From contig CAWELD010000003.1 in assembly GCA_963809895.1 (NCBI GenBank), positions 832,001 to 896,000 on the forward strand: a stretch of DNA of 64,000 nucleotides, given 5' to 3'. A model generated the notes under the pieces. It was not told the origin of the DNA, did no database searches, and was given only the letters and a program-made list of their open reading frames with translations. The DNA is from an uncultured Gemmatimonadales bacterium. GTDB taxonomy: Bacteria > Gemmatimonadota > Gemmatimonadetes > Longimicrobiales > Gaopeijiaceae. Below, in pieces: positions 8,132 to 16,079 of the stretch (positions are counted from its first letter, which is position 1; each line of letters opens with the position of its first letter). A program made the translations under genes and the position numbers.

Positions 8132-8632
8132 TCAGAAGAACCAGAGAATCGTGATGTCGGGATCGGCAGTGGGGAGCACGGCGACCTCGTTGCCGGGCGT
8201 GCTCTCCACAAGGGGCAGATCGGCCTCCAGGCCCGGCGCCGGGCCCAGGTCCGGCACCGGGCCGGCGGATGGCGCGGTGGGGCGGGGGACCGGCCGGAAG
8301 AGCACGGCCGCCAGGACGGCCGCCGCGGCGAGTCCCAGCCAGGGCAGGTGGCGGCGGGTCGAGCGTTTACCCGGCGCGCGCGCTTCGGGCGCTCGCATGC
8401 CGGCGCCGGACGCCCGCTGCGCCTGGGCCAGAATCGCCTCCACGTCGGGCACACCCGCCGGCGTGTCGAGGCGGTGGGCCAGTATCTCGGTCAGCGCGAC
8501 GAACCGCTGGGCCCGCTCGCGACAGCTCGCGCAGGCGGCGAGGTGCCGGGCCAGGGGCGTGTCGCCGTCGCCGCGAAGCTCCGCGGGCGACGCCGTCAAG
8601 AGCAGGTCCTGAAAGGAATTGCATTCGGTCAT
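8132..8632 (-). CDS. Putative zinc-binding anti-sigma factor
   Basis: HLAACASC (HxxxCxxC) motif, single transmembrane segment, overlaps the sigma factor stop. Confidence 0.75.
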   Translation of the reverse strand: MTECNSFQDLLLTASPAELRGDGDTPLARHLAACASCRERAQRFVALTEILAHRLDTPAGVPDVEAILAQAQRASGAGMRAPEARAPGKRSTRRHLPWLGLAAAAVLAAVLFRPVPRPTAPSAGPVPDLGPAPGLEADLPLVESTPGNEVAVLPTADPDITILWFF

Positions 8633-9228
8633 AGCATGTCCGGCACGAGATGGGGCAGGCCGTCCAGCAGTCGTCCTCTCAGCGTGCGGCGGGCCTTGTG
8701 GAGGTGGGCGCGCACCGAGACTGCCTCGATACCCAGGAGCTCGCCCACCTCCCGGGCGTTGTAGCCCTGCAGCTCCACCAGGTCGAAAACCTCGCGCTGC
8801 CGATCCGGTAGCTCCCGGAACAGCGTCTCCAGGGCCGCACCGAGGCGCTCGGCGTCCACGCGGTCGAGGGGCTCCAAGCTTCCGGCCTCGCCGAGAAGCG
8901 CCCGGGCGCCGTGCTCGGTGTCACGGCGGGCCCGGCGGCTGGCGCTGCGGTGGTGGTCACGGGCGACGCTGCGGGTCACGGTATAGAGCCAGGTGGTGAA
9001 GCGGGCCGAGGCCCGGTACGTGTGGAGGGAGCGGAGCATGCGCACCATGACATCCTGCGTGAGGTCGTCGGCCTCGGCCTCGTCGGGTGCCCAGCCCCGT
9101 GCCCAGCGTCTCACCAGGGGGTAGGTGCGCTCCACCAGCGCGCGCAGCCCGGCGGGATCGCCCGCCCGGGCCCGGCGCACCAACGCCGCATCGATGTCGT
9201 GGGCGCCGCCGGTCCGGGGCACGAGCAC
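8629..9228 (-). CDS. ECF RNA polymerase sigma factor
   Basis: ADDLTQDV, FTTWLYTVTR (region 2); LPDRQREVF...EVGELLGIEAVSVRAHLHKAR (region 4). Confidence 0.92.
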   Translation of the reverse strand: MLVPRTGGAHDIDAALVRRARAGDPAGLRALVERTYPLVRRWARGWAPDEAEADDLTQDVMVRMLRSLHTYRASARFTTWLYTVTRSVARDHHRSASRRARRDTEHGARALLGEAGSLEPLDRVDAERLGAALETLFRELPDRQREVFDLVELQGYNAREVGELLGIEAVSVRAHLHKARRTLRGRLLDGLPHLVPDML

Positions 9229-9256
9229 GTCCTTCCTGGTGTGGATTCGCCCCTGA

Positions 9257-9363: not shown

Positions 9364-10017
9364 ATGGCGCACATCCCCTACGTTCCGTACGACGACGCCG
9401 ACGGGCTCCTGGCGGAGCACTACCGGCGCTACCGGGAGCCCCACGGCGGGGTGGATCACATCATCCGGATCCATTCCCTGAACCCGGCCTCCCTGGGCCA
9501 CCACTACCAGATGTACGCGCACCTGATGCGGGGGCGGTCGCCACTCACCCGGGTGCAGCGCGAGATGATCGCCGTGGCGGTATCGGCGGCCAACGACTGC
9601 TTCTACTGAATCAACCATCACGGAGCGGGCCTCCGTACGCTGCTGGATGACGACAGCCTGGCTCGGGCGCTGGCCACCGATCCGGACGGCGCCGAGCTGC
9701 CCGGCCAGGAGCGGGCGATGGTCGATTACGCGCTGAAGCTGACCCGCACGCCCGGCACCATCACAGCCGCCGACGTGGACCGGCTTCGCCAAGCGGGTTT
9801 CGAGGATCGGGCGGTGCTGGACATCGCTCAGGTCACCGCCTACTACAACTACGTGAACCGCCTGGCCGACGGCCTGGGCGTGGAGCTCGAGGACTACTGG
9901 ATGGACGAGGACATGACGCTGACGAGGGAGCAGTTCGAAGCGCTGCGTGGAGGGCATGGCGTAGCGGAGAGCGATCCCGAAGGCATGGCCTCGCCCGACG
10001 CTGGAGATGGCCCGTGA
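9364..10017 (+). CDS. AhpD/carboxymuconolactone decarboxylase-like peroxidase-related protein; probable selenoprotein (TGA 9607-9609 read as Sec, CxxU)
   Basis: ORF-track pieces 8911-9609 and 9718-10017 are in one frame separated only by TGA: ...REMIAVAVSAANDCFY*INHHGAGLR...YALKLTRTP...LRQAGFEDRAVLDIAQVTAYYNYVNRLADGLGV; 217 aa if read through. Confidence 0.85.
9620..9636 (+). promoter_or_regulatory. Bacterial SECIS-like hairpin
   Basis: ACGGAG-CGGGC-CTCCGT: perfect 6-bp stem with G-rich loop, beginning 11 nt after the in-frame TGA. Confidence 0.6.
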
Positions 10018-11600
10018 CTCCCACTGGCGTGATCCTCACCGGCAGCTCCCTGACGCTGGACCAGGTGGGGGCGGTGGCGCACCGGCGGGCCGGTCCCGTG
10101 AGCCTGGGCTACGGCGCGCGCGACGCCGTGGTGCGCGCTCGGGAGCAGGTGGAGCGTGCCGTGGAAGCGGGTGAGCGCATCTACGGCGTGACCACCGGAT
10201 TCGGGCGACTGGCCGAGGTCGTCATCTCACCCGAGCAGCGCACGACGCTGCAGCTCAACCTGCTGCGCAGTCATGCGGTGGGCGTGGGCTCTCCGCTCCC
10301 CAGGGAGGCCGTGCGCGCCATCCTCCTGCTGCGGGCCAACGCCCTGGCCCGCGGGGCCTCGGGGGTGCGGCTGGAGGTGCTGGAGCACCTGCTCGAGCTT
10401 CTCAATCGGGGGATTCATCCGGTGGTGCCCGAGGCGGGCTCCGTAGGGGCCAGCGGAGATCTGGCGCCCCTGGCCCACGTCGCCCTGGCCCTGGTGGGTG
10501 AGGGCATGGTGGAGGTGGAAGGGACCGTCCGCCCCGCGAGCGAAGCCCTCGCCGACGCCGGACTCGCGCCCCTGACCCTCCAGGCCAAGGAGGGCCTGGC
10601 GCTCATCAACGGCACGCAGGCCACCACCGGCATGGGCATCCTGGCCTGGCTCCGGGCCCGGGCCGCGCTGGAGGCGGTGGAAGCGGCCGGCGCCATGTCG
10701 CTGGAGGCCCTCAAGGGTACCCCGGAGGCCTTCCGTGCCGAGGTCTCCGATCTGCGCCCCCATCCGGGCCAGACCGCCTCGGCGGCGACGCTCCGGCGCC
10801 TGTTGCGCGACTCCGAGATCCGGGAGTCCCACCGTGAGAACGATCCCCGCATCCAGGATGCCTATTCGCTCCGTTGCATGCCCCAGGTGCACGGCGCGGC
10901 CCGGCAGGCGTTGGCCTACGTGCGCGGGGTCCTGGAGACCGAAGCGAACAGCGTCACCGACAATCCCCTGATCCTCACCGACGCCGACGCGGTGGTGAGC
11001 GCCGGGAACTTCCACGCCCAGGTGGTGGCCCAGGCGCTGGACTTCGCCTGCATGGCACTGGCGGACCTGGCGGCCATCAGCGAGCGGCGCACCGAGCGTC
11101 TGCTCAATCCCGATCTGTCCCAGGGGCTGCCGGCTTTCCTGGCGCATCATCCCGGGCTGGAGTCGGGGCTCATGATCGCCCAGGTCACGGCCTGCGACCT
11201 GCTGGCCGAGCTCCGGGTGCTTGCGCATCCGGTCAGCGTGGACTCGGTGCCCACCAGCGCCAACCAGGAAGACCACATCTCCATGGGCATGGCGGCCGCC
11301 CGCAAGCTCACCCGCGGGGTGGGCTGCCTGGAATACGTGGTGGCGGTGGAGTTGCTGTGCGCGGCCCAGGGCCTCGAGTACCGACGACCGCTCAAGGCCG
11401 GCGTGGGCGCCGAGGCGGCCTACGGGCGGGTGCGGGAGGTCGCGGCGGCGCTGGACGGCGACCGCTCCCTCCATGACGAGCTCGAGCGGCTGGCGGCGCG
11501 GGTGCGGGTGGGGGACTTCCGCATCGCCGCGCTGGATCCCAGCGGAGAGCCGCCCCCACCCGACACCCCCTCCCACGACGACGTGCATCGGCCCGGCTGA
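10014..11600 (+). CDS. hutH: Histidine ammonia-lyase
   Basis: [20 protein letters not shown]-forming [42 protein letters not shown]. Confidence 0.95.
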
Positions 11601-11646: not shown

Positions 11647-13323
<1,677 letters not shown>

Positions 13324-13362: not shown

Positions 13363-14773
13363 TCAGCGGCCCGCGCGGCGCCCGAGCGCCTCCAGCACCT
13401 CGCGGTACCGGGCCGCCACTTCCTCCTGCCGGGGGTGGCGGCCCTCTGCCACCACCTGGCGACCGCCGACCCAGACCTCCGACACCGGGGTGTCGTTGCC
13501 GCTGAAGACCCAGCCGTCCAGGAGCTGGTCGCCGTCCAGGCCCGCCAGCGCGGGATGCTCGGGGTCCAGGACGACCCAGTCCGCGCGATGGCCCGCTGCC
13601 AGCGCCCCGAGCTTCCGTCCCGAGGCCTGGGCGCCGCCCTGCCAGGCGCCCTCCAGGAGCACGCGCCCCGTGGAGCGCTCCGCCGGTCCCGCGGCCACGT
13701 TGCGGGCGCGGGTCCAGCAGGCGCTGGCCGTATTCCAGCCAACGGAGCTCCTCGATCGGGCTGACCGAGACGTGGCTGTCCGAGCCCACGCCCCAGCGTC
13801 CGCCCACCTCCAGATAGTCGGCGAGGCGGAAGAGCCCGTCACCCAGATTGGCTTCGGTGGTCGGACACAGGCCCGCCACCGCGCCGGAGCGGGCGAGCCC
13901 GGCGACCTCGGCGTCGTCCATGTGGGTGGCGTGGACGAGGCACCAGGTGGCGTCCACCGACGCGTGCTCGAGGAGCCACGCCACCGGGCGCTGGTCCGAC
14001 CAGGCCAGGCAGGCCTCGACCTCTCTCTGCTGTTCCGCCACGTGGATGTGGACGGGACCTTCGAGGTCGCGCGCCCGCCAGGCCTCCAGGACGCGGGCGA
14101 GGGCGTCGGGAGGGACGGCACGGAGCGAATGGAAGGCGAGTCCCGCCCGGGTGTCGGCATGCGCGGACGTGGCGGCGACGGTGGCATCCAGGAGCCCGAG
14201 GTAGGCGTCCTCGTCCAGAACGAAGCGCCGTTGTCCCTCGCCCGGCTCGGCGCCCCCGAAGTCCGAGGTGCGGTACAACACCGGCAACAGCGTCATCCCC
14301 AGGCCCGCCTGGCGCGCGGCGCGCAGCACCTGGAGCGCCATCTCGGCGGGATCGGCATACGCCGCCCCTGCGGGATCCAGGTGCAGGTAGTGGAACTCGC
14401 AGATCGAGGTGTAGCCGTGCCGGAGGAGCTCCACGTAGAGCTGTTCCGCCACCGCACCGACGTCGTCGGGCGTCAGCACGCCGAGGAACGCGTACATCCG
14501 CTCCCGCCAGCTCCAGAAGCTGTCGCCCGCCCGGGATCCGCGCTCGGTGCGGCCCGCGAGGGCGCGTTGGAAGGCGTGGGAGTGGAGGTTGGGGATCCCC
14601 GGGACCACGACGCCCGGGAGCCCGGTCTCCGTCGCCGGCCCGGAATCCCTCCGATCCGTCGCTGCGGAGCTTCGGGCGACCCCCGTGATCTCGCCGGCGT
14701 CGTCCACCGTCAGTCGGACGTCCCGGGCCCAGCCGTCGGGGAGAAGGGCGAGGGGCGCGCGGTAGTGATGCAT
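13363..14773 (-). pseudogene. hutF: Formimidoylglutamate deiminase with a +1 frameshift near 13714 (possible sequencing error)
   Basis: PNLHSHAFQRALAG, EFHYLH, HIHVAEQ, CPTTEANLGDG, GSDSH...EELRWLEYGQRLL, then homology continues in another frame (TRARNV...GALAAGHRADWVVLD...VWVGGRQVV). Confidence 0.88.
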
Positions 14774-14831
14774 GGGGCGCGAGTCTAGATTGCCCGGCGC
14801 ACGTCCGTCAACCGAGCACCGGAGCGACTCC

Positions 14832-16079
14832 GTGACCGACCCCACCTGGGACACGCTGTGGATCGACGCGAACCTGGCCACCATGGATCCGGCGGCCGGG
14901 GGCGACGGAAGCGTGAGACGGGGTGCGCTGGCGGCGCGCGATGGGCGAATCGCATGGGTGGGCGTCGAGGAGGAGCTTCCCGGAGATCCGCGCGCCCTCG
15001 CCCGCGAAGTACGGTCCGTGGGGGGCGCCTGGATCACCCCCGGCCTCGTGGACTGCCACACGCACGCGGTCTTCGGGGGGCAGCGGGCGGGCGAATTCGA
15101 AGCCCGTCTCGCCGGGACCTCCTACGAGGACATCGCCCGAGCCGGCGGCGGAATCCTCTCGACGGTACGCGCGACCCGTGCCGCCACAGAGGAGGAGCTG
15201 GAGCGCACGGCGCTGGCCAGGCTCGGCGATCTGGCGGCCGACGGAGTCACCACCGCCGAGATCAAGTCCGGCTACGACCTCACGGTGGAAGGCGAGCTGC
15301 GCATGCTGCGCGTCGCGCGTCGGCTGGGTGAGCGCGGCCTCCTGGAGATCCGCACCACCCTGTTGGGACTCCACGTGGTTCCGCCCGAGTATGGAGAGGA
15401 TCGCGGGGAGTGGGTGCGCGCGGTAGCCGACGTGCTGGTTCCGCGGGCGGCCGACGAAGGGCTGGCGGATCAGGTCGACGCCTTCCTGGAGGGAATCGCC
15501 TTCAGCGCCGAGGAGTGTGCCCCGGTGATGGCGTCGGCCCGGAGGCACGGCCTGGGCGTGCGACTGCACGCGGATCAGCTCGAGGACGGGGGTGGCGCGG
15601 CGGCGGCGGCGGCCATGGGGGCGCGCTCCGCCGATCACCTGGAGCACGCGTCGGAAGAGGGGATCGCCGCCATGGCGAAGGCCGGCACGGTGGCCGTCCT
15701 GCTCCCCGGTGCCTACCACACACTCCGGCAGACCACGCCTCCGCCCGTGGAGCTCTTCCGCAAGCACGGGGTGCCCATGGCCGTGGCCACCGATCTCAAC
15801 CCGGGCACGGCGCCGGTGCGCTCGCTGCGTCTGGCCATGAACCTGGCCTGCGTGCGCTTCGGGCTGACGCCCACGGAGGCGCTGGCCGGTGCGACGCGGA
15901 CGGCGGCGCGGGTGTTGGGGCTCGAAGATCGCGGCCGACTGGAGGTCGGGCTACGAGCGGACCTGGTGGTGTGGGACGTCGAGGAGCTCGCGGAGCTGTG
16001 CTACTGGCTGGGAGGAAGCCTCGTGAGGGAGCGCGTCCTGGCGGGGGTCGGGGTGGGGGCCCGCGACTCTGGTTCCTGA
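14832..16079 (+). CDS. hutI: Imidazolonepropionase
   Basis: PGLVDCHTH, GGGILSTVRATR, EIKSGY, LHADQL, SADHLE, VATDLNPG. Confidence 0.95.
   Translation: MTDPTWDTLWIDANLATMDPAAGGDGSVRRGALAARDGRIAWVGVEEELPGDPRALAREVRSVGGAWITPGLVDCHTHAVFGGQRAGEFEARLAGTSYEDIARAGGGILSTVRATRAATEEELERTALARLGDLAADGVTTAEIKSGYDLTVEGELRMLRVARRLGERGLLEIRTTLLGLHVVPPEYGEDRGEWVRAVADVLVPRAADEGLADQVDAFLEGIAFSAEECAPVMASARRHGLGVRLHADQLEDGGGAAAAAAMGARSADHLEHASEEGIAAMAKAGTVAVLLPGAYHTLRQTTPPPVELFRKHGVPMAVATDLNPGTAPVRSLRLAMNLACVRFGLTPTEALAGATRTAARVLGLEDRGRLEVGLRADLVVWDVEELAELCYWLGGSLVRERVLAGVGVGARDSGS

Follow-up and report, generated by a model that had tools for sequence, protein, structure and literature searches.

In the 64-kb window (the whole stretch of DNA that was analysed), a single reading frame on the forward strand runs from an ATG at 9364 to a TGA at 10015-10017 and is interrupted once, by an in-frame TGA at 9607-9609 (codon 82) in the context NDCFY*INHH. 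Is this TGA the stop codon of a short protein that is followed by a second one, or is it read as selenocysteine (Sec)? A sequence-only reading of the DNA had described just this frame and had taken it for a hidden selenoprotein gene that gene callers split in two. Indeed, the public protein collection contains the halves, of 81 and 99 amino acids, and lacks the full protein with a C at position 82. Our analysis makes it very probable that the sequence from 9364 to 10017 is one gene for one AhpD-like selenoprotein (TIGR01926/COG2128, CxxU) of 217 amino acids. If the TGA of codon 82 codes for Sec, the two unnamed fragments are one enzyme.

The interrupted reading frame and its product

The 36 codons between the TGA and the next ATG (9718) had been called stop-free and family-like, and both statements hold: there is no stop codon, and the translation shares 56% of its residues with a Cys homologue that has no interruption (E = 6e-11). 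The stop-free run itself was rejected as proof of read-through, since 545 of the 1078 TGA trinucleotides in the window, i.e., about half, likewise precede 36 stop-free codons. If the TGA were a true stop, separate proteins of 81 and 99 amino acids would be made, the second after a restart at ATG 9718. Gene callers yield exactly these two products, and any failure of Sec insertion should leave some truncated protein, but the codons between the halves encode conserved protein, including the invariant His86 and Leu90. Moreover, uninterrupted Cys forms of the protein exist, the TGA tracks the Sec machinery, and silent sites keep the stem of the hairpin described below. We therefore consider two separate proteins highly unlikely.

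The read-through protein matched positions 8-174 of the 178 positions of the TIGR01926 profile with 148.2 bits (cut-off, 81.8) and also exceeded the cut-offs of TIGR00778 (42 versus 27.8 bits) and PF02627 (43.2 versus 23 bits). It could be aligned without a gap through the TGA to PDB entries 2pfx, 3c1l, and 2oyo (E = 9e-31 to 6e-26), which have Cys at that site. This comparison with AhpD/CMD homologues, proposed earlier as a check, confirmed that the TGA falls on the second Cys of CxxC and gives the motif C79-F-Y-U82 (9598-9609, forward strand). Of the CxxC pair, it is the second residue that makes the attack. In 73 aligned sequences (U written as C), E67, C79, position 82, H86, L90, and R166 were invariant. 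Glu67 (9562-9564, forward strand) corresponds to the Glu in the proton relay of AhpD, and His86 (9619-9621, forward strand) is the relay His; the predicted SECIS stem begins inside its CAC codon, with two bases in the overlap. The last ~20 residues of the 217-aa product form a non-conserved tail.

AlphaFold gave a poor model from the single sequence (pLDDT of 52); the model used instead was made from the 73-sequence alignment for residues 1-180, with C modelled for U, and reached a pLDDT of 96. With this model, Foldseek retrieved 3c1l, 2pfx, 2prr, 6k40, and 2oyo with TM scores of 0.85 to 0.91 and also the debrominase Bmp8 with a TM score of 0.78. According to the model, the protein has the all-helical AhpD fold with the Glu-Cys-Cys/Sec-His relay residues. 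The label "peroxidase" is one that we infer for the predicted enzyme at the level of the family.

Probable selenocysteine codon, hairpin, and decoding machinery

Homologues were found in 21 of 41 near relatives and, at E ≤ 1e-20, in 110 of 301 genomes of the phylum. Among the matches listed in the phylum search, a TGA was present in 144 of 150, its position having been verified only for loci whose DNA was compared. The DNA comparison rests on 68 close loci, that is, 78 loci (L022-L099) minus 3 duplicates or partials (L035, L043, and L046) and minus 7 distant paralogues, which scored under 250 and all have TGC. At the site of codon 82, 59 of these loci have TGA and 9 have a Cys codon. TGA was also found there in 18 of 18 additional loci; the named close loci, six of them from other phyla (Acidobacteriota, Ca. 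Cybelea), have it in 7 of 7. Kin are not independent, and no statistical test is claimed for these conservation counts. Many genomes of the phylum hold two TGA-bearing AhpD-like paralogues, and one TGA homologue (L040; G028:C95:84869-85471) has ~35 extra in-frame codons in the middle of its C-terminal half.

Could the gene be a pseudogene, or the TGA a sequencing error? The assembly does contain a break in the reading frame of hutF, at a distance of 4 kb. However, such a reading is contradicted because TGA is conserved at the same codon in relatives (59 + 18 + 7 loci, own locus included), phylum-wide and in two other phyla, and both halves are under conservation. We give it next to no credence. 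Four of 16 listed sequencing runs were checked, as contigs; these stem mostly from other organisms and contain at most 24% of the words of this DNA. One contig covers 9347-9692, including codon 82, with 12 differences and no gaps, and the RNA run has only one 52-base piece at codon 82, which is 83% identical.

The perfect hairpin ACGGAG-CGGGC-CTCCGT that had been noted just after the TGA is present at 9620-9636 (forward strand), i.e., at +11 to +27 after the TGA with a spacer of 10 nt. This predicted bacterial SECIS (bSECIS) has a 6-bp stem and a 5-nt loop with G at loop position 2, and the loop begins 16 nt past the TGA; all four values lie within the published bSECIS shape (stem of 4-16 bp, loop of 3-9 nt, G at loop position 1 or 2, and 16-37 nt from the UGA to the loop). 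Of the 104,184 TGA trinucleotides in the genome, 69 (0.07%) are followed by a perfect 6-bp stem in exactly the same geometry, and 4.5% by a comparable hairpin whose loop lies at +17 to +38. The folding energy is -6.9 kcal/mol for the bare hairpin and -7.7 kcal/mol with flanks, which is borderline by the bSECIS criterion of ≤ -7.5. The hairpin is not the minimum-energy fold of the longer region, for which a competing fold has -13.4 kcal/mol, nor is it among the 15 lowest listed folds of the 45-nt region, and it has no extra stability over shuffled sequence (z = +0.16, -0.25, -1.19, and -0.87). Since these z-scores are not significant, folding energy was rejected as proof of a SECIS. What supports the predicted hairpin is conservation, not stability.

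In the TGA copies, 94.4% (45 loci) and 93.3% (40 loci; the two sets overlap) of the stem cells are paired; the figure is 30-53% for slid registers and 50% for the nine Cys copies. Of the 59 TGA loci, 54 retain the G at the second loop position, against 4 of the 9 Cys loci. Codon choice follows the same pattern. Gly+5 is GGA or GGG in 51 of 51 TGA copies versus 45% elsewhere in the same genes, and Ala+6 is GCG in 44 of 44 TGA copies versus 47% elsewhere (Cys copies, 2 of 7). Leu+8 is CTC or CTT in 57 of 59 TGA copies versus 45% elsewhere, the two CTG exceptions being loci whose partner base went from G to C, and Arg+9 is CGT in 47 of 59 TGA copies versus 8% elsewhere (Cys copies, 2 of 8). One pair shows a compensated change, from G-C to C-G, which occurs in 2 loci of the 40-locus set and in all 6 loci that come from other phyla. 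Covariation of the stem is thin, with none in the 45-locus set and this one pair, possibly from one event, in the 40-locus set. A HAHDLR-type subgroup (L037, L038, L094, L095, and L098) keeps the TGA and has only 3-4 of the 6 pairs in this register. Overall, related genomes keep both features whose conservation had been named as a check, the TGA in 59 of 68 loci and the stem with 93-94% pairing. One Cys copy (L080; G124:C4) is in a genome in which no Sec machinery was found, yet it retains five of the six stem pairs together with the rare codons CTC CGT; it is possibly a recent Sec-to-Cys reversion.

A search for selA, selB, selC, and selD had also been advised, and all four were found above cut-off in the host genome, which is 95% complete: tRNA-Sec scored 76.6 versus 47 bits, selA 540 versus 268, selB 322 versus 242, and selD 374 versus 125. 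In the phylum, selA was found in 244 of 301 genomes. Among the 110 homologue-bearing genomes it was found in 107, the three others being G124, G268, and G212. Two TGA-bearing genomes are without a selA match; one (G019) has tRNA-Sec and the other (G212) has tRNA-Sec and selB. G212 is an unpublished genome that enters only here and in the phylum counts; G094 and G191, likewise unpublished, contribute only to the selA count. In G020, G023, G124, and G268 (78, 92, 99, and 97% complete, respectively), no selA, selB, or tRNA-Sec was seen, and all four use Cys. Five of the nine Cys copies are in Sec-capable genomes, three of which carry a TGA copy as well.

A suppressor or a changed code could in principle have the UGA read as Cys or Trp, and homologues do have Cys at this position. 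In the host genome, however, TGA is the commonest stop codon, ending 878 of 1145 long ORFs, and the sole tRNA with a UCA anticodon at the default threshold is tRNA-Sec; a second UCA call, obtained at a relaxed threshold, has no RF01852 match and does not resemble a tRNA. We regard insertion of Cys or Trp as very improbable. The selenoprotein interpretation is supported by the alignment of the TGA with Cys, by the conserved TGA and hairpin, and by the sel genes.

Other in-frame TGAs were seen in the host genome. The selD gene (G000:C3:3207072, forward strand; L018) has one in HGAG*ACK, with a 7-bp hairpin and the loop GAUGA, and is itself a predicted selenoprotein gene. A Prx-like gene (G000:C3:2553273, reverse strand) has one in FYRGHW*PHC (UxxC), followed by a hairpin with a 6-bp stem and a 5-nt loop at the same offsets after the TGA as in the AhpD-like gene, and likely encodes another selenoprotein. 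At G000:C3:2436825 (reverse strand), a TGA is followed by GSC, presumably resembling the UGSC motif; the hairpin is weak, and this TGA may be an ordinary stop. In genome-wide scans for further Sec codons, a first version missed the AhpD-like gene and selD, and a looser one gave 20 candidates, mostly noise, among which the AhpD-like gene was recovered and selD was again absent. The selB search also brought up a second EF-Tu-like gene in two pieces (G000:C3:232157-233324), another possible assembly frame break. Elsewhere in the genome, 17 tRNA genes are arrayed in ~2.1 kb (G000:C10:356346-358464).

The neighbouring hut genes and the possible function

The genes downstream are those of histidine breakdown. 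The GTG start of hutH (histidine ammonia-lyase; 10014-11600, forward strand; TIGR01225, 664 bits versus cut-off 539) overlaps the TGA stop of the selenoprotein gene by 4 bases (GTGA). It is followed by hutU (urocanate hydratase; 11647-13323, forward strand; TIGR01228, 943 versus 375 bits), by hutF (formimidoylglutamate deiminase; 13363-14773, reverse strand), and by hutI (imidazolonepropionase; 14772-16079, forward strand; TIGR01224, 427.5 versus 298 bits). hutF lies in two frames, which match profile positions 1-349 and 344-453 of TIGR02022; the break near 13710 reflects either an indel introduced by assembly or a genuine frameshift. HutU scored below the cut-offs for thiourocanate hydratase (NF058530, 697 versus 930; NF058531, 740 versus 880), and an ergothioneine-type (thiourocanate) pathway was therefore rejected for the neighbours. 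Since its stop overlaps the hutH start, the selenoprotein gene is probably co-transcribed with hutH-hutU, and translation of hutH may be coupled to ribosomes that have passed the Sec codon. A promoter and terminator scan found nothing at the selenoprotein gene. Divergent from it are genes for an ECF sigma factor (8629-9228, reverse strand) and a probable anti-sigma factor (8132-8632, reverse strand); in none of the 57 further loci examined does this pair adjoin the gene. A near-identical contig in the RNA run spans 8950-9237, in the ECF sigma region, and indicates presence only.

How far does the link to hut extend? We sampled 61 genomes across the genera of the host's bacterial family, one per genus. 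The orthologue was present in 26 genus representatives, and by hand count the gene directly downstream was hutH in 22, hutU in 1, and neither in 3. Many of the orthologue-hutH junctions in the family have the 4-base overlap, and the Cys form in G020 is also coupled to hutH. Within the available flanks, no hut genes were found near the orthologue in any of the 8 loci that represent other families (L072-L079) or in any of the 8 named loci. In other genomes of the host's own genus the link was not seen, several contigs ending early. Furthermore, 21 of 43 hutH-bearing genomes had no close DNA match to the selenoprotein gene among the best 4 candidates per genome, a search in which misses are possible. 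The simplest reading of the link is inherited gene order. No publication linking AhpD-like proteins or selenoproteins to hut genes was found in the literature searched (mostly open-access papers, main text).

By the established bacterial mechanism, SelB would bind the hairpin at 9620-9636 and bring Sec-tRNA to UGA82; with selenium short, ribosomes would stop at UGA82 and leave a truncated product. In the complete protein, the AhpD fold would set Glu67, Cys79, Tyr81, Sec82, and His86 as a proton-relay set, as in homologues. The selenolate of Sec82 would attack its substrate, either a peroxide or a thiol in oxidised form, and Cys79 would then resolve the product by forming a selenenylsulfide. 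The enzyme would be returned to its reduced form by a lipoyl or thiol donor of the cell, the role that dihydrolipoamide/NADH has for the AhpD studied best. This likely cycle is drawn from the properties of AhpD homologues, which are described as weak peroxidases or reductants of other peroxidases that are recycled by lipoamide/NADH (PMC8945050, PMC3141380). By analogy, the protein is likely a selenol/thiol oxidoreductase, and, given that the gene is real, a role in general oxidant defence is the one we favour with reasonable confidence.

A different function for the same selenoprotein can be proposed from the gene order. It could be a reductase of histidine breakdown that keeps HutH and HutU reduced and active or that strips halogen, sulfur, or selenium from a modified imidazole, which could then be fed into the Hut pathway. 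hutH or hutU is directly downstream in 23 of 26 genus representatives, many with 4-base overlaps; the AhpD fold includes the debrominase Bmp8 (TM score, 0.78); and a profile search found no canonical AhpC above cut-off in the host genome. No paper on Bmp8 was found in the literature search. However, the link is limited to one bacterial family and, within its own genus, was seen in the host genome only. Also, 21 of 43 hutH-bearing genomes gave no close match in the DNA search of limited depth, the profile scores of HutH and HutU are those of the ordinary enzymes, and inherited gene order accounts for the pattern. We hold such a reductase to be improbable. That the selenoenzyme is, in the host's family, dedicated to histidine breakdown, as its first step or its protector, with hut translation dependent on selenium, is likewise doubtful and has only an outside chance of being right; if true, it would give the AhpD-like selenoprotein family a concrete substrate. 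The conserved coupling to hutH offers a lead, open to experiment, on what the family does.

Comparison with known AhpD-like proteins and selenoproteins

The "peroxidase-related" structures 2pfx, 3c1l, 2oyo, 2prr, and 6k40 share the fold and the C-x-Y-C-x-x-H motif region with the 217-aa protein; they are 30-37% identical to it and have Cys where it has Sec. We take 6k40, an AhpD-like protein of D. radiodurans, to be DR1765. Loss of DR1765 is reported to increase sensitivity to H2O2, and both of its Cys residues matter (PMC8945050). A five-residue proton relay has been described for P. aeruginosa PA0269 and for mycobacterial AhpD (PMC3141380), and its spacing, Glu(-12)-Cys-x-Tyr/His-Cys-x3-His, is kept here: E67, C79, Y81, U82, and H86 correspond to E36, C48, Y50, C51, and H55 of PA0269. 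The latter is distant (23% identity) and is reported to have weak peroxidase activity (PMC3141380). Unlike in AhpD systems, no ahpC adjoins the gene of the 217-aa protein. With the AhpD-related CFYUT (seleno)protein of NF041238 and with the CMD-like CxxU selenoproteins of PF02627 it shares the CFYU-type motif and the CMD/AhpD core; however, membership in NF041238, a 357-position model, was rejected at 61.6 bits versus a cut-off of 175.

AhpD-like CxxU selenoproteins were described in 2005 from the Sargasso Sea, with 27 sequences (PMC1088965), and appear in a 2006 genome survey (PMC1794560) and, with 299 sequences, as "AhpD-like 1" in the GOS study (PMC2398784). A table of a 2026 review has a row "AhpD-like protein, TIGR01926, CxxU," in which the family is equated with TIGR01926; the main text of that review does not name Gemmatimonadota (PMC13188914). 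In the literature searched, mostly the main text of open-access papers, no relevant paper on Gemmatimonadota selenoproteomes was found. For the annotation, one selenoenzyme replaces two fragments in the public collection, and the same fragment problem probably affects many of the 110 homologue-bearing genomes among the 301 of the phylum. The AhpD-like family is a common selenoprotein of this phylum. The gene is real and well supported, and it belongs to an already known selenoprotein family and not to a new kind of system: the catalogued AhpD-like CxxU family has the same profile, the same CxxU motif, one Sec, and a downstream bacterial SECIS, and the predicted 217-aa protein differs from it in no respect of kind.
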